Positions 6,394 through 32,930 of a stretch of 64,000 nt of DNA are shown piece after piece. The notes beneath the pieces were generated by a model. It searched no databases. It was not told where the DNA came from and worked only from the letters and a program-made list of their open reading frames with translations. Within the stretch, counting starts at the first letter, position 1. Each line of letters begins with the position of its first letter. Both the position numbers and the translations under genes were made by a program. This DNA is from Rhodocyclaceae bacterium (GTDB lineage Bacteria > Pseudomonadota > Gammaproteobacteria > Burkholderiales > Rhodocyclaceae): positions 10,941 to 74,940 of the forward strand of contig DAINDE010000009.1 of NCBI GenBank assembly GCA_036732025.1, given 5' to 3'.

Positions 6394-7953
6394 TCAGGGA
6401 CAGTCAATCACCATCAGGGAAATATCGTCGCTGGCGGCACCCGTCCCCAGGTGCCGCGCCAGGGCCGCCTGGATGGCCTCGAAGCGCTGGCCGGGCAGGG
6501 TGTTGGCGGCGCCGGCGATGAGACCCTCCTTGCCGAACTGCCGGCCGGCGTCGCCCTCGGCTTCGATGAGGCCGTCGGAGAACAGCACCAGTTGGCTTTC
6601 CGTACTCCAGGCAAAGCGGACCGGATCTGCGCCGATGGCGTCGTTGTCGACGATGCCCAGGGGTAATTCCGTAGAGACGAATTCCTGCGCCAAGTTCCCG
6701 CCGCGGTCGAAGAGCAGGGCCTCGGGGGTGCCGCCGACCCAGATTTCCCCTTGGGAGCGGCTTTCGTCCAGGCAGACGACGGTGGCGGCGACGAAGCGCC
6801 CAAGGGGCATGGATTCCCGCAATTGCTGGTTGAGTTCGAGTACCAGTTCGCGCACCGGGGAATCGTTGGACACCATGCGGTAGAAGACGGTGAGCAGGGG
6901 CAGCACGCTGATGGCCGCCGCCAGGCCGTGGCCGGTGGCGTCGGCCAGCAGGGCGTAGAAGCGTCCCTCCGGCGAGCGGGCTGCGGCCACCACGTCACCG
7001 CTGAAATGCTGGGCGGGAATGACTTTGTAATGGAGGCGGGGGTCCTGCAGGCCGCGCCGGTGCAACTGCTTCTGCACCAGCTTCATGGCCAGTTGCTGCT
7101 CGCCTTCGGTGTGGTCGTAGTAGGCCTGGAGCTGGTCGGCGTTTTCCCGCAGTTTGCGTTCGGCCAGCTTGCGCTCGGAAATGTCGCGCAGAACGCCGAT
7201 GAAGAGGCGGGTATTGTCCAGGCGCAACTCGGAGACTCCCAGTTCGGCGGGGAACTCGGACCCATCCCGGCGGCGGGCGGTGACCTCCCGCTCGGTGCCG
7301 ATCACGTGGGAGGGGCCGCCGGCCACGTAGGCGCGCACGTATTCGTCGTGACGTTGATGGTGGGGGGCGGGGATCAGCACGTTTACGTTCTGCCCCACCA
7401 GTTCGTCGGGCTGCCAGCCGAAGAGCCGCGCAGTGGCGTGGTTGCAGGCGATGATCCGGGCCTCGGTGTCGATGGTGATGATGGCTTCCATCACCGCGTC
7501 GGAGATGGCCTGCATGCGCTTGAAGGACTCCGCCGCCTGTTGCTGCAGGTTGAGGGAGCGCTGCATCGAGCGGATCTTGGCCTCCAGCACGATGAAGTTG
7601 ATGGGCTTGGTGAGGTAGTCGTCGCCGCCGGCTTCCAGGCCTTCGAGCAGGTTCTCGTCGCGGTTGAGGGCGGAGAGGAAGATGACCGGAACCCAGCGCT
7701 CGCTGGAGCGGGCCTTGATCTGGCGGGCCGCCTCGAAGCCGTCCATGACCGGCATCATGATGTCGAGGAGCACCATGTCCGGATGTTCCCTGTCGAAGCG
7801 CTGTACGGCTTCCTCGCCGTTCTCCGCCAGGATGACCTCGTGCCCCAGCTTCTTGAGGAAGACCTGCAGGATGTGCAGGTTGGTGCGGTTGTCATCGACC
7901 GCCAGGATGCGCAGCCGGGTCAGAGCCGGGGTCACGGTTGCTTCCTCACCCAC
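6394..7953 (-). CDS. response regulator with REC-PAS-PP2C (SpoIIE/RsbU-type) phosphatase output
   Basis: 519 aa. The receiver is ILAVDDNRTNLHIL...DMVLLDIMMPVMDGFE, followed by a PAS region. The C-terminal region SGDVVAA...LADATGHGLAAA...LFSDGLIEA is typical of SpoIIE/PP2C phosphatases. Confidence 0.85.
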   Translation of the reverse strand: MGEEATVTPALTRLRILAVDDNRTNLHILQVFLKKLGHEVILAENGEEAVQRFDREHPDMVLLDIMMPVMDGFEAARQIKARSSERWVPVIFLSALNRDENLLEGLEAGGDDYLTKPINFIVLEAKIRSMQRSLNLQQQAAESFKRMQAISDAVMEAIITIDTEARIIACNHATARLFGWQPDELVGQNVNVLIPAPHHQRHDEYVRAYVAGGPSHVIGTEREVTARRRDGSEFPAELGVSELRLDNTRLFIGVLRDISERKLAERKLRENADQLQAYYDHTEGEQQLAMKLVQKQLHRRGLQDPRLHYKVIPAQHFSGDVVAAARSPEGRFYALLADATGHGLAAAISVLPLLTVFYRMVSNDSPVRELVLELNQQLRESMPLGRFVAATVVCLDESRSQGEIWVGGTPEALLFDRGGNLAQEFVSTELPLGIVDNDAIGADPVRFAWSTESQLVLFSDGLIEAEGDAGRQFGKEGLIAGAANTLPGQRFEAIQAALARHLGTGAASDDISLMVIDCP

Positions 7954-21219: not shown

Positions 21220-21259
21220 TTGACAACTCATGTCGATATAACTACGATTATCGACATGA
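21220..21259 (+). promoter_or_regulatory. candidate sigma-70 promoter with an embedded perfect 11-bp inverted-repeat operator
   Basis: TTGACA 21220-21225, a 17-nt spacer, then TACGAT 21243-21248. The inverted repeat TCATGTCGATA (21228-21238) / TATCGACATGA (21249-21259) with a 10-bp spacer straddles the -10 and covers the ATG at 21256. Confidence 0.6.
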
Positions 21260-21662: not shown

Positions 21663-23804
21663 ATGCGTTCGCTGATCAAACCGTTGTTGCGCGGCCTGTG
21701 CCGCCTTTTGTTCCGGGTCCGGGTCGAGGGCCTGACCCGGGAATTCGCCGCCGACCGCCTGTTGGTGGTGGCCAATCACGAATCCTTTCTCGATGGCCTG
21801 CTGCTCGGGCTCTTCCTGCCCATCGACCCGGTCTTCGTGGTCCATACCGGGGTGGCCAACGACTGGCTCTTCCGCCTGCTGCTCTCGCAGGTGGATTACC
21901 TGGCGGTGGACCCCACCAGCCCCATGGCCATGAAGAAGGTCATCCGCCTGCTGGAAACCGGCCGGCCGGTGGTCATCTTCCCGGAAGGGCGCATCACTAC
22001 CACGGGCAGCCTGATGAAGGTCTACGACGGCCCCGCCTTCGTCGCCGCCAAGACCGGCGCCACGGTGCTGCCGGTGCGCCTGGACGGGCCTTCCCGCAGC
22101 TACTTCTCGCGGGTCTCGGGCAAGCATCCCCGGGTATTCTTCCCCAAGGTGCGGCTCAGCGTGCTGCCGGCGACCACCATCCCCATGCCGGAAGCGCCCA
22201 CCGCCAAGCTGCGCCGGCGCAAGGCCGGCGAGGCCATGCGCCGGCTGATGCAGGAGATGATCTTCGCCTCCCGCCCGCAGCAGACGCTGTTCAGCGCCCT
22301 GTGCGACGCCGCCGATGTTTTCGGCAGGCAGCGCCGGGTGCTGGAGGACATGAAGCAGATCGAGTATTCCTACAACGACCTGCTCAAGATGGCCCTCATG
22401 CTCACCCGCCTGGTGGAGCGCCACACTGCGGCCAGCGAGCGGGTCGGCCTGCTGCTGCCCAACCTGGCCCCCACCCTGGGGCTGCTCATCGGCCTTACCG
22501 CCCGCCGCCGGGTGCCGGCCATGCTCAACTACACCGCCGGCGTCGACGCCATGCAGGCGGCGTGCACGGCGGCGGAAATCCGCACCATCGTCACCTCCCG
22601 GGCCTTTGTCGAGCAGGCCAAGCTGGGCGACAAGCTGGCGGCCCTCGCCGGCATCCAGTTCCTCTACCTGGAAGACCTGCGCGAGGCCATCGGCCTCGGC
22701 GACAAGCTCTGGCTGATGGCCTGGGCCATCCACCGGCCGCGGGCCTTCGAGCTGCCCACCTCGCCGGAGGAAGCCGCCGTGGTGCTGTTCACCTCCGGCT
22801 CCGAGGGCAAGCCCAAGGGCGTGGTGCTGCCGCACCGGGCCATCCTCGCCAACATCGCCCAGGTGCGGGCGGTGATCGACTTCTCGGTGGACGACAAGGT
22901 CTTGAACGCCCTGCCGGTCTTCCACTCCTTCGGCCTCACCGCCGGGGCGCTGCTGCCGGTGCTCACCGGCGCCAGCCTCTTCCTCTACCCGACGCCGCTG
23001 CACTACCGCATCATCCCCGAGCTGGCCTACGACCGGAACTGCACGGTGCTCTTCGGCACCTCCACCTTCCTCGGCAACTACGCCAAGTTCGCCCACCCCT
23101 ACGACTTCTACCGCCTGCGCTACGTGGTGGCCGGCGCCGAGAAGCTCTCCGAGGCCGTGCGCAACACCTGGTTCGAGAAATTCGGCATCCGCATCTTCGA
23201 GGGTTACGGCGCCACCGAGACCGCCCCCGTGCTGGCGGTGAACACTCCCATGGCCTACCGCACCGGCACCGTCGGCAACCTGCTGCCGGGCATCGCGGCC
23301 AGGCTGCTGCCGGTGCCCGGCATCGAGCGCGGCGGCATCCTCCACGTGCGCGGCCCCAACGTCATGGCCGGCTACCTCAAGGCCGACGCCCCGGGTCTGC
23401 TGCAACCGCCGGTCTCCGAGGCGGGCGAGGGCTGGTACGAGACGGGCGACGTGGTGGAGCTCGACGACGAGGGCTTCGTCAAGATCGTCGGTCGCGTCAA
23501 GCGCTTCGCCAAGATCGCCGGTGAGATGGTCAGCCTGGAAGTGGTGGAAAAGCTGGCCGTCGCCTCCTCCCCGGCCCAGGCCCACGCCGCGTCGAGCCAG
23601 CCCGACGCCGCCAAGGGCGAGGCCCTGGTGCTGTTCACCACCGACGGCGGGCTGTCCCGCGAACTGCTGGCGGCCAAGGCGCGGGAGCTGGGCATCCCGG
23701 AACTGGCGGTGCCGCGCAAGATCCACAAGGTCGATTCCCTGCCGCTGCTGGGCACCGGCAAGGTGGATTATCTGACCCTGAAGCGCCTGGCCGAGGGCGT
23801 CTGA
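21663..23804 (+). CDS. aas: bifunctional 2-acyl-glycerophospholipid acyltransferase / acyl-[ACP] synthetase
   Basis: 713 aa. The N-terminal PlsC-type HX4D box is NHESFLDG with FPEGRITTTG. The C-terminal adenylate-forming domain has FTSGSEGKPKGV and GYGATETAP. The architecture is identical to E. coli Aas. Confidence 0.9.
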   Translation: MRSLIKPLLRGLCRLLFRVRVEGLTREFAADRLLVVANHESFLDGLLLGLFLPIDPVFVVHTGVANDWLFRLLLSQVDYLAVDPTSPMAMKKVIRLLETGRPVVIFPEGRITTTGSLMKVYDGPAFVAAKTGATVLPVRLDGPSRSYFSRVSGKHPRVFFPKVRLSVLPATTIPMPEAPTAKLRRRKAGEAMRRLMQEMIFASRPQQTLFSALCDAADVFGRQRRVLEDMKQIEYSYNDLLKMALMLTRLVERHTAASERVGLLLPNLAPTLGLLIGLTARRRVPAMLNYTAGVDAMQAACTAAEIRTIVTSRAFVEQAKLGDKLAALAGIQFLYLEDLREAIGLGDKLWLMAWAIHRPRAFELPTSPEEAAVVLFTSGSEGKPKGVVLPHRAILANIAQVRAVIDFSVDDKVLNALPVFHSFGLTAGALLPVLTGASLFLYPTPLHYRIIPELAYDRNCTVLFGTSTFLGNYAKFAHPYDFYRLRYVVAGAEKLSEAVRNTWFEKFGIRIFEGYGATETAPVLAVNTPMAYRTGTVGNLLPGIAARLLPVPGIERGGILHVRGPNVMAGYLKADAPGLLQPPVSEAGEGWYETGDVVELDDEGFVKIVGRVKRFAKIAGEMVSLEVVEKLAVASSPAQAHAASSQPDAAKGEALVLFTTDGGLSRELLAAKARELGIPELAVPRKIHKVDSLPLLGTGKVDYLTLKRLAEGV

Positions 23805-25082: not shown

Positions 25083-26738
25083 ATGAACAACATCCTGTCC
25101 GCATCGCGTCTGGCCCGTTTCTTCATCACCGTGGCGGGTGCCTGGGCGGTGGCGCCGGCCAGCCTTTCCGCCGCGACCATCGAGAGCGCCGTGGCTACCG
25201 GCAATCTCGGCTTGTTTGGCGCGGCCGATTTTCGCCTGGCGACGGGCCGCTGTACCGACTGCCCCGCTGAAAAGCAGGCCATGTGGTATTTCGGGGACGA
25301 TACGGTGGCGGTCCCCAAGGCCGGGGCAGGGGGATTCTCGCCCCGGCTCAGGGCGCAGGAGGACGTCCGTGAGTGGCAGGTACGACGGAGTGGCCGGGAG
25401 GGGGCGGAGCGGCCATCTCCGGTGTGGATCGGTTCGCCGGAGAAAGCCGCTGGCTGGACCCTGGCCGATGACGGCGCCAGTATGCTCGGCCGGGATGGCA
25501 GTGCCCGCCCGTTTGCCCTGGTTCCCAAGATCGAGGCGAATCGCTCCTATTTCGATGCCGCCAGCCGAAGCTATTTCGCCGGCCGTCCCCTGATCCTGCG
25601 GGGCCGCACGGAGGGCGGTCGCTTTGTGGCCCGAACGCTATGGCCGGAGGATTTTGCCCTGGACAACCCGCCGGCGGCGCCCCTCGGCGCCGGTGAAACG
25701 CTGGCCGGCCTGGTACGGGCGGAGGACGGCGGCGCACGGGCCCCCCTTGCCGCCCGGGTACTCTGGCAAAAGGACGGGGGCAAGCCGGTGGCGCTTGCCG
25801 GAAAGCCGGTCCTCACCTTCATGCTCAACGGTGCCCAGGGCGACGACGACGAAGCCCACGGCGGCCACTTCGCCATCGCCACCGGGCGCTTCGGCCCCCA
25901 CGGGGAGTGGGGCGACTGGCTGGTGAACAACTTCTACGGTCTCGATTCCTACAGCGAAAAGGGCATCGTGGCGTCCATGCTGCCCATGGATGCCTACATG
26001 GGCGACCTGAACTCAGGACAGTCCTGGTACCGTCCCTCCCACATGCTGGTGGCGGTGCTCAAGGATGAACGGGCGGCGCGGGAGTACCAGGGGGCCATTG
26101 CCCGGGTTTTCACCCATTTCTACCGTCATGACTTCGTCTATCGCCACGCCACCGCCAATTGCGCCGGCATCAGCCTGGAAACCCTGCGCACCCTGGGCTG
26201 GAACATTCCCAAGGAGGGCGCGACCAATCGCCTGAAGGCTGTCGTGGCGCTGCCCTACATGGCCATCAAGGAGGGCAGCCTGGAGAGCGGCAAGAAAGCC
26301 TACGACTACCTGTCCGCGGAAGTGACCGATCTTTATCCCTTCGTCGCCTTCGACGCCATCGGCCGCGACCTGCTGGGCCGCGTCACCCGGGGTGGCGCCC
26401 ATGGGGGGCTGGAGCAATGGCTGGCCGAGGATGTGGAGGCGCTGGTTTTCGTGCGCATTCCCCAGTTTCCCTCGTCCCGGGCTTTCGGCCGGGCGCCGGT
26501 GGCGTCCTTTGACGAATACATGAGCCGCGTCCCCGAGGACCGGGAGAAATGGCAGGTAGTGCCGGTACCGCCGCGGCCCTTCCCGCCGGAGATGAAGGAT
26601 GCCGCTGCGCCCGCCGACGAATGGGAGCCGTCCTCCTACGCTGTCGCCGCCTATGGCGGATTCTTCGGCCTGGCGTCGGTGGCCGTGGTCCGCCGGCGCA
26701 AGGCGAAGGCCGGCAAGGGGAAAGGAGGCCGGAAATGA
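25083..26738 (+). CDS. exported, C-terminally membrane-anchored hypothetical protein with a His...Asn-Cys signature
   Basis: 551 aa from ATG 25083; the upstream part of the 642-aa track ORF overlaps the amidohydrolase. Signal peptide MNNILSASRLARFFITVAGAWAVAPASLSA. Conserved-looking EAHGGHFAIATG and YRHATANCAGISLETL. C-terminal TM AVAAYGGFFGLASVAVV plus a basic tail. Confidence 0.75.
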   Translation: MNNILSASRLARFFITVAGAWAVAPASLSAATIESAVATGNLGLFGAADFRLATGRCTDCPAEKQAMWYFGDDTVAVPKAGAGGFSPRLRAQEDVREWQVRRSGREGAERPSPVWIGSPEKAAGWTLADDGASMLGRDGSARPFALVPKIEANRSYFDAASRSYFAGRPLILRGRTEGGRFVARTLWPEDFALDNPPAAPLGAGETLAGLVRAEDGGARAPLAARVLWQKDGGKPVALAGKPVLTFMLNGAQGDDDEAHGGHFAIATGRFGPHGEWGDWLVNNFYGLDSYSEKGIVASMLPMDAYMGDLNSGQSWYRPSHMLVAVLKDERAAREYQGAIARVFTHFYRHDFVYRHATANCAGISLETLRTLGWNIPKEGATNRLKAVVALPYMAIKEGSLESGKKAYDYLSAEVTDLYPFVAFDAIGRDLLGRVTRGGAHGGLEQWLAEDVEALVFVRIPQFPSSRAFGRAPVASFDEYMSRVPEDREKWQVVPVPPRPFPPEMKDAAAPADEWEPSSYAVAAYGGFFGLASVAVVRRRKAKAGKGKGGRK

Positions 26739-28618
26739 GCAGCCAGTTCCAGTTGCTGCAGGAGCGCCGCTTCCGGCCCTTCTTCTTCACCCAGTTCCTG
26801 GGGGCCTTCAACGACAACGTCTTCAAGACCGCCCTGATCACCCTGGTGACCTTTCGTGCCGGGCAACTGACCGACATCGACGGCAAGACCCTGGCAACCT
26901 TGCTGCCGGGGCTCTTCATCCTGCCCTTCTTCCTCTTTTCCGCCACCAGCGGACAGATCGCCGACAAATTCGAAAAATCCGCCGTCGCCCGGGCGGTCAA
27001 GGTCTTCGAGATCGGCATCATGTTGCTCGCCGCCTGGGGTTTCCTCAACAACAGCCTGTGGCCCCTGGTGGGCGCCCTGTTCCTGATGGGCGTACATTCG
27101 ACCCTGTTCGGGCCGGTGAAATACTCCTACCTGCCCCAGCACCTCAGGGAAGAGGAACTGGTCGGCGGCAACGGCATGATCGAGATGGGAACCTTCGTCG
27201 CCATCCTGGTGGGGGAGATCCTCGGCGCCTGGCTGGCCACCTCAAGCTTCGGCCCCGGCCTTACCGCCGCCGTGGTGGTGGGGGTGGCGGTGGCAGGCTA
27301 CTGGGTGAGCCGGAGCATTCCCCTGTCGCCCGCCGCCGACCCGGGCCTGAAGATCAACTGGAACCCGGTCACGGAAACCTGGAACAACCTGCGCTTTGCC
27401 CATGGCAACCGGACCGTGTGGCTTTCCCTCCTGGGCATCTCCTGGTTCTGGTTCTACGGGGCTACGGTGCTGGCCCAGTTCCCCACCTACGCCAAGGAGG
27501 TACTCCATGGCGACGAGAGCGTTTTCATCCTCCTGCTGGCGGTATTCTCCTTCGGCATCGGCGCCGGTTCGCTCCTCTGCGAAAAGCTCTCCGGGCACAA
27601 GGTGGAGATCGGCCTGGTTCCCTTCGGCGCCATCGGCCTCACGGTCTTCGGCGTCGAACTCTACTTCGCCACGCCGGGAGGCCTGGCGCCGACGGAGCAG
27701 TGGAACTGGTCGGCCTTCCTCGGCCAGGCAGCACACTGGCGCGTGCTTGCCGACGTGGTCCTGCTCGGGCTCTTCGGCGGCTTCTACATCGTTCCCCTCT
27801 ATGCCCTGATCCAGACCCGCAGCGAGAAGAGCCACCAGTCCCGGGTCATCGCCGCCAACAACATCCTCAACGCCTTGTTCATGGTGGTCTCGGCCCTGGT
27901 GTCGATGGTGCTGTTCCAGCTTGGGCTGACCATTCCGCAGCTATTCCTGGCGACGGCGCTGTTCAACGCGGTGGTGGCGATCTACATCTATTCGCTGGTG
28001 CCGGAATTTCTCCTGCGCTTCATCGTCTGGATGCTGATCCATACCATCTACCGCCTCGACTGCCGTGGCGTCGAGGAACAGGTGCCGGACCAGGGCGGCG
28101 CCCTTATCGTCTGCAACCACGTGAGCTTCGTCGACGCCCTGGTGATCGCCGCCGCCTGCCGTCGTCCGATCCGCTTCATCACCGACCACAATGTCTTCCG
28201 GCTGCCGATCCTGAACTTCGTATTCCGGGAATCCCGGGCCATTCCCATCGCTTCCGCCAAGGAAGACCCGGCGATGATGGAGCGGGCCTTCGACGAAGCC
28301 GCCCGCGCCCTGGCGGCGGGCGAGCTGGTCGGTATCTTTCCCGAGGGGAAGGTGAGCGAGGACGGGGATATCCACACCTTCCGCCCGGGGTTTCGCCGTA
28401 TCCTGGAGCGCAGTCCGGCGCCGGTGGTGCCCCTGGCCCTGCGCGGCCTGTGGGGGAGCTTCTTTTCCCGGGTGGAGGGCAGCGCCATGAAGCGGCCGTT
28501 CCGCCGGGGGATGTTCTCGCGCATCGCCCTGGTGGCGGGGACGCCCATTCCGCCGGCGGAGGCATCGCCGGAGCGCCTGCAGGCGGCGGTGACGGCCCTG
28601 CGGGGCGAGCAACGCTAA
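26735..28618 (+). CDS. lplT: lysophospholipid transporter LplT (MFS) fused to a C-terminal PlsC-type acyltransferase
   Basis: 627 aa from ATG 26735 (ATGA overlap with the upstream stop). MSSQFQLLQERRFRPFFFTQFLGAFNDNVFK and 12 TM-like segments are typical of LplT. The C-terminal domain has the HX4D box NHVSFVDA and FPEGKVSEDG. Confidence 0.85.
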   Translation: MSSQFQLLQERRFRPFFFTQFLGAFNDNVFKTALITLVTFRAGQLTDIDGKTLATLLPGLFILPFFLFSATSGQIADKFEKSAVARAVKVFEIGIMLLAAWGFLNNSLWPLVGALFLMGVHSTLFGPVKYSYLPQHLREEELVGGNGMIEMGTFVAILVGEILGAWLATSSFGPGLTAAVVVGVAVAGYWVSRSIPLSPAADPGLKINWNPVTETWNNLRFAHGNRTVWLSLLGISWFWFYGATVLAQFPTYAKEVLHGDESVFILLLAVFSFGIGAGSLLCEKLSGHKVEIGLVPFGAIGLTVFGVELYFATPGGLAPTEQWNWSAFLGQAAHWRVLADVVLLGLFGGFYIVPLYALIQTRSEKSHQSRVIAANNILNALFMVVSALVSMVLFQLGLTIPQLFLATALFNAVVAIYIYSLVPEFLLRFIVWMLIHTIYRLDCRGVEEQVPDQGGALIVCNHVSFVDALVIAAACRRPIRFITDHNVFRLPILNFVFRESRAIPIASAKEDPAMMERAFDEAARALAAGELVGIFPEGKVSEDGDIHTFRPGFRRILERSPAPVVPLALRGLWGSFFSRVEGSAMKRPFRRGMFSRIALVAGTPIPPAEASPERLQAAVTALRGEQR

Positions 28619-28627
28619 GGAGGAATC

Positions 28628-28900
28628 ATGGTGAACGCCCTGGTCGTCATCCTCAAGGTGCTGGTGCTGGCCCTCGGACTGGGTCTGCTGTTCGGGGGTG
28701 GGGCGTGCCTGGCTTTCCTGGTGCCGGAAGCCCTGCGCGCCGGCAACGGGGGCGACATCGCGCCCTTCCTGCTGATTTCCCTGGTGGTGGCGGGGGTGGG
28801 GCTGCTCCTGGTGCTGGCGATGATCCGGGCCCTGCGCCGACGCGACAAGGCGCCGGCATCCGGGGTCTCCGGGGGTGATTCCTGGCCGGACGGCCGATAA
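28628..28900 (+). CDS. two-TM miniprotein, paralogue 1 (90 aa)
   Basis: AAGGAGG RBS 28617-28623. Basic n-region, hydrophobic stretch, GGGAC (Cys27), a short loop, a second TM, RRRD, then a disordered tail. Confidence 0.7.
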   Translation: MVNALVVILKVLVLALGLGLLFGGGACLAFLVPEALRAGNGGDIAPFLLISLVVAGVGLLLVLAMIRALRRRDKAPASGVSGGDSWPDGR

Positions 28901-28918
28901 GGGGGAAAGGGGAAAACC

Positions 28919-31642
28919 ATGTGGCTGGTCGGCATGATCGTGGGGCTGGTGCTGGGGGCGCCCTTCGGCAGCGAAGCGGCGGTGGGCGGGGCGCTCATGG
29001 GCCTGCTGGCGGGCGTGGTTGCCGGATCGCTGCGCAAGCCGCAGGAAGGCGAGACCACGGCGGCCACGGCGCAGCGCCTGCAGTTGCTGGAGCAGCAGGT
29101 GGCCTGGCTGCATCGGGAAACCCAGCGCCTGCGGGGCGAACTGGCGGCGTTGCGGGGAGGCGAGGCGCCTGCCGGGGCCACGTCGCCCCCGGCGGAGGTG
29201 CCGCCAGAGGCTATGCCCGAAACGCCCCCGGCCGTTGCCGAAGCGCCGGCCGTCTTCATCGACGAGACGCCGACCCGGCCGGGCATCGATCTGCCGGCCG
29301 CCGAGCCGGCGCCAGCGGTGCGGCCCGGGCCGGCCCCGGTGCCACCGGAGCCGACCCTCTGGCAGCGGCTCATGGCCGGCAACCCCCTGGCCAAGATCGG
29401 CGTCGTCCTGCTCTTCTTCGGCGTCGCCTCAGCCCTGCGGCTGGCGGCGGACTACGGCTTCCTGCCGGTACCGTTGCGCCTGCTGCTGGGAGCGGTGGCG
29501 GGGACGGCGATGATCGCCTTCGGCTGGCACAAGGTGCGCCAGGGCGGCCACTTCGCCTTCGCCATCGCCCTCCAGGGGGGCGGCTTCGCCATCCTCTACC
29601 TGATCGTCTACTTCATGCTGGCCCGCTACGGCCTGCTCGGGCCGACGCCGTCCTTCGCCCTCTTCGCCATTCTCGGTGTGGTCTGCGTGCTCCTGGCCGC
29701 CGCCCAGGATGGCGTGGTGCTGGCGGTGTTCGGCCTGGCCGGCGCCTTCGCCGCGCCGGTGCTGGCCTCCACCGGCAGTGGCGAGCCCCTGGGCCTCTTC
29801 GGTTACTTCGTCCTGCTCAACGCCTTCATCGTCGGCGTCTCCTGGTTCAAGGCCTGGCGGCCGCTCAACGTCACCGGCTTCTTCTTCACCCTCGGCGTCG
29901 GCGTGGCCTGGGCCATGCAGCATTACCACGCCGGCCACCACGACGTGTGCCAGGGCTTCCTCATCTTCTTCTGGGCGCTCTACGCCGTGACGCCAGTGGC
30001 CATGGCCCTCTTCCGGGCGCCGGGCTGGGCGGGGTGGAGCGACGCCACCCTGGTCTTCGGCACGCCCCTGGTGGGCTTCGCCCTGCAATCGCAACTGGCG
30101 GCGGACCGCTACGAACTGGCCTGGGCGGCCTTCGCCGCGGCGCTCGCCTATGGCGCCCTGTGGGGCCTGCTCTTCCGCCGGGGCGAAGAAGAAAGCCGCC
30201 TGCTGGAGCGCTGCCAGCTCGGCCTGGCCATCGCCTTCGCCACCCTGGCGGTGCCGCTTGCCTTCGGCGTCCAGGTGACGGCAGCCTTCTGGGCCCTGGA
30301 GGGCGTCGCCGTACTGTGGTTCGGCGTGGCGCAAGCCCGGCGCCTGGCCATGGCCACCGGCGCCCTGCTGCAGGGGGCGGCCGGCGCCTATTTCCTCTAC
30401 GGCCTGGAGCGGATGCACACCGCCCTGCCGGTGATCAACGACGTCTGCCTGGGGGCCGTGCTCCTGGCCGGGGCCGGCTTCGCCAGTGCCCGCCTGTTGC
30501 GCCGCTTCGCCGAGGGGCCGGCGGCGGGGGCGCTGCTGTGGGCCTTCGCCTGGTGGTGCTTCGCCGGCGGCTTCGAGCTCGACCGCCTTGCCTCCCCATC
30601 CCTCGGCGTGCCGCTCATGCTCGCCTACGTCGCCGGCTCCCTGGCGGCCCTGGAAATCCTCGGCCGGAGCGAGGGCTGGCGGGCGGCCCGCCACCTATCG
30701 TTGCTGCTCCTGCCCGCTCTCTGGCTGGCGGCGGCCTCCACCTTCGATCACGACCACCATTTCCTGGCCGGCCTGATGGTCATCGTCCTGCCCCTGGCCC
30801 TGGGGCTTCATTACTGGGTACTCGCCCGGCAGGAGGCGGACGAAGCGGCCCTGTGGCCGACGCTGCGCCACGTGGGCGGCTTCTGGCTCGCCATGGCGCT
30901 GGTTACCGTGGAACTGGCCTGGCTGGGCGACCGCCTGGCGCCGGGGGTACGGCTGTGGCCGCTGCTCGCCGCCGCCGTCGGCCCGGCCCTGGGCCTCTGG
31001 GCGGCGCTCGCCGGCGAGCGCCGGCAACTACCGCCGGTGGCCGGCCACGGCTTCGCCTACCTGGGCTTCGGGGCGCTGCTGCCGGCGGTGTTCCTGGCCG
31101 GCTGGTCCGTCTTCGCCAACTTCGACCATGCCGGGGGCGGTTCTGGCCTGCCCTACGTGCCTATCCTCAATCCCTTCGACCTGGTGCAACTGGCCGCCAT
31201 GGGCGCGCTTTTCGCCTGGTTGTGCAAACTTGACGAAGAACCCATGGCCGGCATGCCGGTGCCGCGACCCGCCTGGGTGGGCGTCCTCGCCTTCATCTGG
31301 GTGAGCTGCCTCGCCGCCCGCATTGCTCACCATTGGGGCGGCGTTCCCTTCACCGGCCATCACCTGTGGCAGTCCACCCTGCTGCAGGCGCTGCTGACGC
31401 TCTTGTGGACAGCGCTCGCCATCGCCGCCATGATCGCCGCCACCCGGGTCGGGGTGCGCCGCCTTTGGCAGGGGGGCTTCGCCCTGCTGGCGGTGGTGGG
31501 GGCCAAGCTGATGCTGGTCGATCTGGCCAACGCCGGTACCCTGGTGTGGACCGGCTCCCTCATCGGCGTCGCCCTGCTGGTGTTGGCCGCCGGCTACTTC
31601 GCCCCGGCGCCGCCGGCGGCCGACAAGGAGAAAACGACATGA
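28919..31642 (+). CDS. DUF2339-type polytopic membrane protein
   Basis: 907 aa. N-terminal TM, coiled coil (QRLQLLEQQVAWLHRETQRLRGELAAL) and a Pro-rich linker. These are followed by more than 15 predicted TM helices starting NPLAKIGVVLLFFGVASALRLAADYG. The family name is from memory. Confidence 0.75.
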   Translation: MWLVGMIVGLVLGAPFGSEAAVGGALMGLLAGVVAGSLRKPQEGETTAATAQRLQLLEQQVAWLHRETQRLRGELAALRGGEAPAGATSPPAEVPPEAMPETPPAVAEAPAVFIDETPTRPGIDLPAAEPAPAVRPGPAPVPPEPTLWQRLMAGNPLAKIGVVLLFFGVASALRLAADYGFLPVPLRLLLGAVAGTAMIAFGWHKVRQGGHFAFAIALQGGGFAILYLIVYFMLARYGLLGPTPSFALFAILGVVCVLLAAAQDGVVLAVFGLAGAFAAPVLASTGSGEPLGLFGYFVLLNAFIVGVSWFKAWRPLNVTGFFFTLGVGVAWAMQHYHAGHHDVCQGFLIFFWALYAVTPVAMALFRAPGWAGWSDATLVFGTPLVGFALQSQLAADRYELAWAAFAAALAYGALWGLLFRRGEEESRLLERCQLGLAIAFATLAVPLAFGVQVTAAFWALEGVAVLWFGVAQARRLAMATGALLQGAAGAYFLYGLERMHTALPVINDVCLGAVLLAGAGFASARLLRRFAEGPAAGALLWAFAWWCFAGGFELDRLASPSLGVPLMLAYVAGSLAALEILGRSEGWRAARHLSLLLLPALWLAAASTFDHDHHFLAGLMVIVLPLALGLHYWVLARQEADEAALWPTLRHVGGFWLAMALVTVELAWLGDRLAPGVRLWPLLAAAVGPALGLWAALAGERRQLPPVAGHGFAYLGFGALLPAVFLAGWSVFANFDHAGGGSGLPYVPILNPFDLVQLAAMGALFAWLCKLDEEPMAGMPVPRPAWVGVLAFIWVSCLAARIAHHWGGVPFTGHHLWQSTLLQALLTLLWTALAIAAMIAATRVGVRRLWQGGFALLAVVGAKLMLVDLANAGTLVWTGSLIGVALLVLAAGYFAPAPPAADKEKTT

Positions 31643-31950
31643 ACGAATTGCTCAGAGTGCTCTGGATCGTTGCCAAGGGCATCTTACTGCTCGTCGGCGT
31701 CGCCGCCATCCTGGCCGGCGGCATCTGCGGCGCCATCCTGACCCCCGGCGCCCTCGGCCACGACAGCATGGCGCGGGAGTTCCTGATGATTGCCGGCATC
31801 GTCTTCGTCGTCGGCCTGGCCATCGCCATTCCCGCCTGGAAGAGCCTGCGCCGCGACCACCGGGAGGCGCGGGCCAGGCTGGACGCGGAGCTGGAGGCGA
31901 TCCGGCGGCGAGGGGACGGATCGGGCCCCGGCGACGGAGGTGGGCAATAA
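31639..31950 (+). CDS. two-TM miniprotein, paralogue 2 (103 aa)
   Basis: ATGA overlap with the DUF2339 stop. MNELLRVLWIVAKGILLLVGVAAILAGGIC (Cys30), a loop, a second TM, SLRRD, then a charged tail. Only the last 103 codons of the 205-aa track ORF are credible. Confidence 0.7.
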   Translation: MNELLRVLWIVAKGILLLVGVAAILAGGICGAILTPGALGHDSMAREFLMIAGIVFVVGLAIAIPAWKSLRRDHREARARLDAELEAIRRRGDGSGPGDGGGQ

Positions 31951-32184
31951 ATGGATTTCCTCAAGTTCCTCTTCAAGGCCTGTGTCCTGATCCTGGGGCT
32001 GTTGCTCATCGCCGGCGGCGGCCTGGTGAGTCTGTGCGGGGTGCTGGTCCACGACGGCTCCGTCCTGCTCCTCGGATTCTTGCCGCTTGCACTCGGCATC
32101 CTTGGTCTGGTGTTTGTTTTCCGGGGTAAGCCGACGCAGGATTCCGGGGCCGGGTCGCCCAACAGCCCGGAGAATCTGCCTTGA
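31951..32184 (+). CDS. two-TM miniprotein, paralogue 3 (77 aa)
   Basis: The ATG immediately follows the TAA of the previous gene. MDFLKFLFKACVLILGLLLIAGGGLVSLC (Cys29), a loop, a second TM, FRGK, then a Ser/Pro/Gly tail. Confidence 0.7.
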   Translation: MDFLKFLFKACVLILGLLLIAGGGLVSLCGVLVHDGSVLLLGFLPLALGILGLVFVFRGKPTQDSGAGSPNSPENLP

Positions 32185-32930
32185 TCGCTCCGCAATACGC
32201 AGCCTTTGTACATGGCTGCTTTGAAATGCTGGCCCTGGCCGCCGGGGTCGCCTACTACCGCCGCCTGCGGGCGCGGGCGGGGGGCGGCGATCTGCTGCAC
32301 GGCGCCGAGTTCGCCGTCGCCGCCGGCTGCATCTTCGGCGCTGCCCTGGGCAACAAGCTGGTCTTCTGGGCCGAGGTGCCCCACCTGCTGCCGCTCTATT
32401 GGGACAGGCCGGAAGCCTGGCTGGGTGGGCAGTCCATGGTGGGTGGCCTGCTCGGCGGGCTGATCGGCGTCGAGATCGCCAAGAAGCTCACCGGGGTTGT
32501 CCGCTCCACCGGCGATGCCTTCGTCTTCCCCGTCCTCCTCGGGCTGATGATCGGCCGCGTCGGCTGCTTCCTTGCCGGGCTGGCCGACGGTACCTATGGT
32601 CTGCCGACGGGGCTGCCCTGGGGAGTGGATTTCGGCGACGGTATTCGCCGGCATCCGACCCAGCTCTACGAAATCGCTTTCGCCGGGGTGATGTGGCTTG
32701 CCTTGCGGTATTTGCAACCGTCCCTTGCCGGGCAACCCGGCTTGCTCTTCAAGACAATGCTCTGCGCCTATCTCGTCTGGCGGCTGGCGATCGATTCCCT
32801 CAAGCCCGTGCCCTTTGCTTATCCCTTCGGGGCTTCCGGCATCCAGTGGGTTTGCCTGGTTGCCCTGGTCGCCTATCTTCCGCTGGCCTGGCGGCAATGG
32901 CAGCGGCTCAGGCACTTGGCCACTGCCTGA
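32181..32930 (+). CDS. diverged prolipoprotein diacylglyceryl transferase (Lgt) family protein
   Basis: 249 aa with TTG start overlapping the upstream stop; an alternative ATG is at 32226. Three blocks are collinear with the Lgt motifs GGMSFHGGLIG, GRLGNFINGE and RHPSQLYE as I recall them from E. coli: GGQSMVGGLLGGLIG, GRVGCFLAGLADG and RRHPTQLYE. Confidence 0.8.
   Translation: MIAPQYAAFVHGCFEMLALAAGVAYYRRLRARAGGGDLLHGAEFAVAAGCIFGAALGNKLVFWAEVPHLLPLYWDRPEAWLGGQSMVGGLLGGLIGVEIAKKLTGVVRSTGDAFVFPVLLGLMIGRVGCFLAGLADGTYGLPTGLPWGVDFGDGIRRHPTQLYEIAFAGVMWLALRYLQPSLAGQPGLLFKTMLCAYLVWRLAIDSLKPVPFAYPFGASGIQWVCLVALVAYLPLAWRQWQRLRHLATA

Follow-up and report, generated by a model that had tools for sequence, protein, structure and literature searches.

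Cysteine-bearing hairpin miniproteins are linked to an Lgt-like protein and a Tes-like radical SAM enzyme in a Rhodocyclaceae gene array and its relatives

The DNA analyzed here (the window) is a stretch of 64,000 nucleotides from a Rhodocyclaceae bacterium (assembly GCA_036732025.1, contig DAINDE010000009.1, positions 10,941 to 74,940) with about 68% G+C, and the subject of this study is a set of three small membrane proteins encoded in it, mini1, mini2 and mini3, together with the adjacent genes for an Lgt-like protein (LgtL) and an enzyme of the radical S-adenosylmethionine (SAM) type. All of these lie in a co-directional plus-strand array spanning 21.6-36.7 kb of the window, in the order aas, an amidohydrolase-like gene, a gene for a 551-amino-acid (aa) protein, a fusion of an LplT-type major facilitator superfamily (MFS) protein with a PlsC-type acyltransferase (LplT_AT), mini1, DUF2339, mini2, mini3, LgtL, the radical SAM gene, an MFS gene and UbiA. 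The central part of the array contains the following genes:

28628..28900, plus strand: mini1, a predicted 90-aa hairpin with both termini in the cytoplasm (N-in/C-in) and GGGAC (Cys27) in its first transmembrane (TM) helix, TM1; match to the family profile at E 7e-17
28919..31642, plus strand: DUF2339/Arc3A-family polytopic membrane protein of 907 aa; PF10101, E 1.3e-143
31639..31950, plus strand: mini2, a predicted 103-aa hairpin that contains AGGIC (Cys30) and has a charged C-terminal tail rich in Arg and Glu
31951..32184, plus strand: mini3, a predicted 77-aa hairpin with GGGLVSLC (Cys29)
32181..32930, plus strand: LgtL, a putative Lgt-like membrane transferase of 249 aa with the signature GRVGCF; PF01790
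33008..34432, plus strand: radical SAM enzyme, Tes/TrsS-like, whose N terminus forms an HMPTM-type zinc ribbon; PF04055 and PF23545

The original prediction for this locus had recorded miniprotein open reading frames (ORFs) of 90, 103 and 77 aa with ATGA, TAA-ATG and TTGA junctions, and these lengths, coordinates and junctions agree with our analysis. AGGAGG is found 4 nt upstream of the ATG of mini1; the ATG of mini2 overlaps the DUF2339 stop codon as ATGA and is preceded by AAGGAG 8 nt upstream; the ATG of mini3 abuts the TAA of mini2, with GGAGG 10 nt upstream; and the TTG start codon of LgtL at 32181 overlaps the TGA of mini3 as TTGA. The gene order LplT_AT, mini1, DUF2339, mini2, mini3, LgtL, radical SAM is kept in all four other species of the genus (4/4). 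Between species of the genus, the miniproteins share 33-69% identity (46-69% for the mini2 orthologs in four species), compared with 70-95% for the neighboring proteins, and the ratio of nonsynonymous to synonymous substitution rates (dN/dS, pairwise within the genus) is mostly 0.25-0.5 for the miniproteins and 0.13-0.22 for LgtL. The G+C content at third codon positions (GC3) of the miniprotein genes, 0.82-0.89, is similar to that of the flanking genes. Purifying selection and a GC3 typical of coding sequence, along with the Shine-Dalgarno sites, the coupling to neighboring genes and the conserved synteny, show that the three miniprotein ORFs are real genes.

The three miniproteins had also been described as paralogs. 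This was borne out directly for mini1 and mini2, which share 31% identity by BLASTP (E 3e-7), while mini3 has no significant BLASTP match to either of them within this genome and is connected to mini1 through its ortholog in another species (G001), which carries an unshifted AGGLC motif and matches mini1 at 39% over 74 aa. Each of the three scores at E ~1e-16 against the family profile, although all three are rows of this profile and the score is partly circular. The genome encodes exactly three members of the family, all at this locus. As predicted, Cys is residue 27, 30 or 29 of these proteins, within FGGGAC, LAGGIC and GGGLVSLC, respectively, and each protein has its basic patch (RRRD, RRD or RGK). 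The conservation of the Cys after the Gly cluster, which had been proposed as a check, was found in 15/15 orthologs of the genus, across which G17, G24, G25 and G58 (mini1 numbering) are also invariant. In the mini3 orthologs other than that of G001, an insertion of 3-4 residues moves the Cys by about one helical turn, with the local G-L-C-G context retained; a mini3-like GGGLxGLC subtype is found in other lineages too.

While a word-indexed homology search with the genus alignment reached only the immediate clade, distant relatives required an exhaustive profile search, and HMMER recovered 73 proteins at E <=1e-3 from 1.84 billion cluster representatives, nearly all of them 75-100 aa long. 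The family pattern is [KR]-x(6,7)-G-x(6)-G-[GF]-G-x-C, with G-x-x-G-L-C as an alternative hallmark. The Cys stands in its motif context in 116 of the 119 retrieved proteins of <=200 aa, and the remaining three, which are without the entire pattern, are probably false positives. No Pfam or NCBIfam model covering the miniprotein family matched above threshold. Holin-X, NuoK and MFS identities were considered and rejected, the matches to these models in Pfam and NCBIfam being sub-threshold and of TM composition only. From sequence alone, tandem 4-TM duplications (P0050/P0076) and fusions with an N-terminal zinc ribbon appear to contain the same hairpin module, and variants of 450-464 aa have one more TM helix and a large domain after the hairpin. 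The miniproteins thus appear to be an unnamed, previously unannotated family of inner-membrane helical hairpins.

In the AlphaFold2 model of mini1 (49-sequence alignment; mean predicted local distance difference test score, 73.6), helices 2-37 and 45-73 form a hairpin with a disordered tail. The family members carry 1-3 positive charges in the N-region, an acidic or neutral loop and 3-5 positive charges after helix 2. This charge distribution, together with the zinc-ribbon N termini of some relatives, indicates a predicted N-in/C-in topology with both termini cytoplasmic, in which the Cys would lie some six residues short of the periplasmic end of TM1, within the half of this helix that spans the periplasmic leaflet. 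The N-terminal half had been likened to a lipoprotein signal peptide with a non-canonical lipobox, and a lipoprotein-like n-region and h-region do precede an invariant Cys, which at residues 27, 30 and 29 is inside the approximate range of 15-35 expected of lipoprotein precursors. A canonical lipobox, [LVI][ASTVI][GAS]C, whose -1 residue is small, is absent: position -3 is Gly, and position -1 is A, M, L or T in the mini1 orthologs, I or F in mini2 and L in mini3, while the wider family has L, I, F, V or Y there. In the AlphaFold2 model, the first helix is continuous through the Cys and is followed by the second TM helix, which argues against cleavage at the Cys.

LgtL is a member of the Pfam LGT family (PF01790, 76.7 bits against a cut-off of 24.9, profile positions 14-237 of 240), and its NCBIfam Lgt equivalog scores are all far below the cut-off; a canonical Lgt is encoded elsewhere in the same genome. 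In the alignment with E. coli Lgt (5AZB), GRLGNFINGE is replaced by GRVGCFLAGLADG and SFHGG by SMVGG, and the RHP(S/T)QLYE and Y...R...E/D blocks are retained. R126 (R143 in Lgt), R201 (R239), Y197 (Y235) and R157-H158 of the RHP motif are invariant in 77/77 members of the LgtL family. R143 and R239 of Lgt have been described as essential and are thought to bind anionic lipid (PMC12462473). Position 87 (Lgt H103), which is Val87 in the window, is Val or Ile in the 77 members, and Leu stands at the position of Lgt Glu151. Cys129 (window 32565-32567), at the position of the essential N146 of Lgt, is present in 77/77 members across phyla within the signature GR[VI]GCF, an invariance that is partly built in, as one of the two patterns used for retrieval contained the Cys. 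Based on hydropathy and the alignment to E. coli Lgt, C129 and R201 are predicted to lie in the periplasmic-leaflet halves of TM4 and TM6, at the same depth as the miniprotein Cys. The invariant Cys129 hints at thiol-based chemistry.

The radical SAM protein scores 336.9 bits against the NCBIfam TrsS model (cut-off 490) and 259.6 bits against the Tes model (cut-off 450), and is thus a member of neither equivalog. It represents a subfamily that is related to, but distinct from, Tes/TrsS, and by sequence it falls among the bacterial Tes homologs, whose function is unproven and which have been proposed as synthases of glycerol dialkyl glycerol tetraethers of the branched type (brGDGTs) (PMC8941075; PMC13159169). 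Tes itself, the closest characterized relative, acts on lipid tails (PMC8941075). Like Tes/GDGT-MAS, the enzyme in the window has an HMPTM-type zinc ribbon, and its taxonomic spread is heavy in Acidobacteriota and Proteobacteria, as is that of the bacterial Tes homologs (PMC8941075). Different from what is described for Tes, it is encoded with an Lgt-like partner and putative Cys-bearing client genes, neither of which is mentioned in the papers searched. Our literature search found nothing linking Lgt with a radical SAM or Tes enzyme, and for the name TrsS it returned a selenoprotein catalog only, with no functional information. To our knowledge, Proteobacteria such as the source organism are not known tetraether producers.

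We surveyed LgtL across genomes by fetching 80 loci of at least 461 confirmed relatives, which span Proteobacteria, Acidobacteriota, Bacteroidota, Cyanobacteria, Planctomycetota, Verrucomicrobiota, other phyla and a few archaeal metagenome-assembled genomes (MAGs). Massilia kyonggiensis JCM 19189, Pelomonas sp. Root1237 and Parachitinimonas caeni DQS-5 are, judging from the loci, cultured bacteria that carry the module. A Tes/TrsS-like radical SAM gene lies downstream of LgtL in 72/80 loci, indicating that the two make up a closely linked module of ancient origin. In 22 proteobacterial LgtL loci, hairpin miniproteins (profile E<1e-3) are encoded on the same strand, within ~1.3 kb and in 1-3 copies, with three copies in L027, L034, L047 and L059 and two in L046. 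They usually abut LgtL or lie between LgtL and the radical SAM gene, and both upstream and between placements are known (L028, L044). Among 401 genomes sampled evenly from the phylum, the miniprotein (E<1e-6) and LgtL (E<1e-40) were found in the same three genomes, where they are adjacent. Among 151 genomes sampled from the order, strong miniprotein matches occurred only in three LgtL-bearing genomes; in two further LgtL genomes of the order, a Sel1-repeat membrane protein adjoins the pair instead. Three independent look-ups from the miniprotein side all led to genes beside LGT and Zn_ribbon_HMPTM/Radical_SAM genes. Within the genomes and loci surveyed, therefore, the miniprotein family occurs only in operons holding the LgtL-radical SAM pair, and comparative genomics strongly supports the link to the Lgt paralog and the radical SAM enzyme that the original prediction had drawn.

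Several loci show rearrangements of the module. In L024 (9000-12600) and L026 (8000-11000), the LgtL-radical SAM block, with a miniprotein in L024, occupies an island of 45-50% GC in genomes of ~60% GC, which suggests horizontal transfer, and in L023 an ORF resembling a phage integrase, as judged from its sequence, is next to the block. Genes for an AAA_14/DUF4143 ATPase and a TIR_2-domain protein stand between LgtL and the radical SAM gene at L123:5331-7217 (also in L124 and L125) in a sister species, and this insertion looks like a defense-type cassette splitting the pair; the corresponding gaps are L014:10478-11727 and L015:9931-11922, and the gap in the window is only 77 nt. In species G002, LgtL is split by a frameshift into two overlapping pieces in different frames (L014:9749-10478; query 1-93 and 76-243), with the three miniproteins intact, and is either a pseudogene or an assembly error. 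A 341-aa ORF joining a GFGICSLC miniprotein to LgtL (L049:4686-5711) was considered as a Rosetta-stone fusion and set aside, because joining the cytoplasmic C terminus of the hairpin to the N terminus of LgtL in the periplasm would take one more TM helix. An indel artifact is the probable explanation, and a plausible one, as the record name of this betaproteobacterial MAG suggests a long-read (probably nanopore) assembly.

In addition to the single hairpins, other proteins with a Cys-bearing helix are encoded in the same operons. P0064, a 464-aa protein whose N-terminal part is the hairpin, was located in metagenome contigs and was not found among the genome contigs; its operon has the order Aas-like, LplT-like, P0064, two lipoprotein-like genes, LgtL, radical SAM. 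Tandem 4-TM hairpin forms lie inside the operon at L056. At loci in which no member of the hairpin family was detected, other membrane proteins are often encoded between LgtL and the radical SAM gene or just upstream. Beyond Proteobacteria, where such membrane or lipoprotein-like proteins join the gene pair, these include hairpins of 62-95 aa with TLGYCG, GFGLCS or LGLCGA, acidobacterial ones among them, 7-8-TM proteins starting ...GLSSCVG, further proteins starting ...LSTLCA, a lipoprotein-like family of ~240 aa and Sel1/TPR proteins with IGGTGC. No Pfam domains other than Sel1 repeats were found in these alternative proteins. Small ORFs outside Proteobacteria were detected with crude hydropathy and motif filters.

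To quantify this feature, we scored TM-ORFs for a Cys in the distal two thirds of the first helix preceded by a small residue, using TM-ORFs >1.5 kb away as controls. Such a Cys was found in 56/88 operon-adjacent TM-ORFs and 48/288 controls (odds ratio 8.75, Fisher p 2e-16), a count that treats related genomes as independent, so that the p value overstates the evidence. Common to these mutually unrelated architectures is a first helix at whose end small residues surround a Cys, and a recognition element for a membrane enzyme would look like this.

Two of these groups of operon proteins recur at several loci. One is the conserved family of ~240 aa, which is without a Pfam match and whose signal-like N terminus ends in GS[LM]GCATM (L029:4249-4962, L031:4198-4965, L040:2571-3290, and L143:6414-7139 and 7216-7947), which recurs in LgtL-radical SAM operons of Proteobacteria and of a Verrucomicrobiota MAG and is a candidate second client class. 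The other comprises Sel1/TPR-repeat proteins with a Cys-bearing TM or signal helix (L025:10408-10833, L026:10560-11183, L043:5620-6429, L046:5728-6654 and L128:4980-5774), in lineages that either are without the hairpin family or carry both.

We consider it highly probable that the miniproteins are dedicated components of the LgtL-radical SAM system. For the more specific reading, in which they would be dedicated thiol acceptors (substrates) of LgtL, we judge the chances to be about even. This reading is favored by the Cys as the sole invariant reactive residue at the right membrane depth, by the attachment of the helix-plus-Cys module to diverse cargo, by the multiple, fast-evolving copies, and by the known chemistry of the Lgt family, namely lipid transfer to such a Cys; several fast-evolving paralogs per enzyme fit clients better than stoichiometric subunits. 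In this scheme, the hairpins would insert into the membrane, and LgtL, with both phospholipid-binding arginines, Cys in place of Asn146 and Val in place of His103, would recognize the Gly-rich helix and move a glyceryl-lipid from a phospholipid onto the hairpin thiol. Cleavage by signal peptidase II probably would not follow, because of the bulky -1 residue and the second helix, and the product would remain a lipidated hairpin, whose attached or neighboring lipid tails the cytoplasmic radical SAM enzyme may then modify. That a lipid is transferred, which lipid it is and what the radical SAM enzyme does are all inferred.

Several observations weigh against a substrate role. The miniprotein motif departs from the canonical lipobox, with I, L, F, M or T at -1 in most members, and the Cys of the mini3 type is shifted 3-4 residues from the Gly pair, which a strict recognition motif might not tolerate, though G-L-C-G is kept. 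LgtL is without the His103, Asn146 and Glu151 of Lgt and may therefore not catalyze an Lgt-type transfer at all. The pair also occurs without a detectable miniprotein in Xanthomonadales, Mucilaginibacter, cyanobacteria and others, so its core function needs no hairpin family. The retrieval bias behind the Cys129 count and the relatedness of the genomes in the first-helix comparison count on the same side.

The strongest competitor, which we rate as clearly less probable than a substrate role and yet as a serious possibility, is that the miniproteins are non-substrate subunits or regulators of an LgtL-radical SAM membrane complex whose true substrate is a membrane lipid. They might tether or orient a soluble radical SAM enzyme, gate lipid access, or provide a thiol working with Cys129 of LgtL in a disulfide or covalent relay. 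The tight genomic link is the same under both readings, and the far wider distribution of the LgtL-radical SAM pair suggests a lipid-directed core activity, in keeping with the action of Tes on lipid tails (PMC8941075). Moreover, the invariant G17, G24, G25 and G58, which occur in both helices, look like helix-packing sites, a Cys shift of about one helical turn in mini3 is easier to tolerate structurally, and LgtL has lost three catalytic residues of Lgt. On the other hand, 1-3 divergent paralogs per enzyme with a dN/dS 2-3 times that of LgtL would be unusual for stoichiometric subunits, the helix-plus-Cys module is found on unrelated cargo (the 464-aa protein, 7-8-TM, Sel1 and lipoprotein-like proteins), and the Cys, according to the positive-inside inference, would be in the periplasmic leaflet, away from the cytoplasmic active site of the radical SAM enzyme.

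The original prediction had offered, as an alternative, that the miniproteins serve the DUF2339 protein, which mini1 and mini2 bracket, as small subunits or regulators. This protein matches PF10101 over its full length (profile positions 2-659 of 659) and belongs to the Arc3A family, an identity that the original prediction had not recognized and that corrects the reading of this gene. DUF2339 is Arc3A (PA5114) of Pseudomonas aeruginosa, a polytopic protein that prevents lysophospholipid accumulation under attack by phospholipase toxins, and arc3 genes often neighbor aas (PMC8926400); the window gene, 5 kb downstream of aas, matches this reported neighborhood. Small Cys hairpins, on the other hand, have not been reported with Arc3A, and the association seen here is confined to one genus. 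In favor of a DUF2339 partnership, mini1 and mini2 flank the gene, with mini2 coupled to it by ATGA, in all five species of the genus. Nevertheless, 39/151 genomes of the order contain DUF2339, and 36 of these 39 are without a strong miniprotein match; in G050 and G092, the DUF2339 gene and the miniprotein-LgtL locus are far apart; and no miniprotein-like ORF was found within 1.5 kb of 10 other DUF2339 genes. Conversely, among the LgtL loci only L027, from a congener of the window organism, has DUF2339, and none was found in the 79 others, including 21 other proteobacterial miniprotein loci, so that no LgtL locus outside the genus contains it. Three miniproteins stand in tandem without DUF2339 in Pelomonas-type loci, and elsewhere the miniprotein array sits directly between LplT_AT and LgtL (L028, L044, L049 and L126). 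As a general claim, the alternative is thus largely refuted, and we regard it as very unlikely. Based on the distribution of DUF2339, its distant copies in G050 and G092 and the lack of miniproteins beside other DUF2339 genes, the bracketing is a genus-level juxtaposition of an aas/LplT/Arc3A lysophospholipid block with the miniprotein array and not a specific partnership. The DUF2339 gene in the window is the only copy in its genome, and none was found in three other sampled genomes of the same family.

It is a shade less likely still that the miniproteins are ordinary lipoprotein precursors of the housekeeping Lgt, LspA, Lnt pathway. They resemble prolipoproteins in that a basic N-region and a hydrophobic helix lead up to an invariant Cys (residue 27-30 in the three proteins) near the predicted periplasmic face, mini1 has GGAC with a small -1 residue, a canonical Lgt is present in the genome, and LgtL is a true PF01790 member. 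They differ in their G-[GF]-G-x-C motif with Gly at -3 and, in most orthologs and relatives, I, L, F, M or T at -1, and in a predicted helix that runs 10 residues beyond the Cys into a hairpin with a second TM helix and no LspA-type site. Their phyletic pattern tracks LgtL and not the universal Lgt, and LgtL differs from Lgt in having Cys for N146, Val for H103 and no E151, in being paired with a radical SAM gene and in being additional to the housekeeping enzyme. Finally, that the miniproteins are non-functional ORFs or generic holin-like or TM-composition look-alikes is barely credible: high-GC genomes yield many spurious ORFs, and weak matches exist to Phage_holin_3_6 (16.6 and 17.1 bits, below its cut-off of 28.4) and other TM families, but the translation signals, coupling, synteny, selection, GC3 and family-wide invariant motif given above all speak for genuine genes.

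There is precedent for thioether-lipidating paralogs with altered catalytic residues and distinct substrate selectivity in the archaeal AliA/AliB enzymes (PMC12462473) and in second actinobacterial copies of Lgt. Those enzymes act on lipobox proteins genome-wide, whereas the putative clients here are operon-encoded hairpins and the module includes a radical SAM enzyme. A bolder proposal, which we put forward as speculative and rather improbable, is a new protein-linked lipid pathway made up of LgtL, the radical SAM enzyme and the Cys hairpins, in which Tes homologs would act on thioether-held glyceryl-lipids of dedicated G-G-x-C membrane proteins and not on bulk membrane lipids. Either its product would be a new class of tail-modified or cross-linked lipoprotein anchor, or the hairpins would carry membrane-spanning lipids covalently during their assembly and release them afterwards. 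If this proposal were true, it would change the use of Tes-homolog genes as markers of brGDGT producers.

These findings bear on two fields. Bacterial Tes homologs have been proposed as the missing synthases of the brGDGT palaeoclimate biomarker lipids (PMC8941075); here a diverged Lgt with a Cys at the putative active site almost always accompanies them, and Cys-helix membrane proteins encoded in the same operons of many lineages provide concrete candidate substrates or partners for both LgtL and the radical SAM enzyme. The arrangement also points to a possible second, dedicated route of Cys lipidation in Gram-negative bacteria beside the housekeeping Lgt/LspA/Lnt pathway. Newly defined are the unannotated miniprotein family and GR[VI]GCF as a diagnostic signature for the Lgt-like subfamily.

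The upstream part of the array in the window contains the following genes:

21663..23804, plus strand: aas, acyltransferase and acyl-ACP synthetase (PF01553 and PF00501), the first large gene of the array, 3' of a promoter-like site at 21220
5' of the LplT-MFS/PlsC fusion, plus strand: the 551-aa protein, without a Pfam or NCBIfam match
26735..28618, plus strand: LplT-type MFS protein fused to a PlsC-type acyltransferase (Pfam and NCBIfam matches)

The LplT/PlsC fusion is a recurrent upstream neighbor of the miniprotein/LgtL/radical SAM block, the same arrangement being found in the four loci named above. In a promoter and terminator scan whose signal was at background level, no convincing terminators or promoters were found inside the array, and the site at 21220 was the sole promoter-like site 5' of it.

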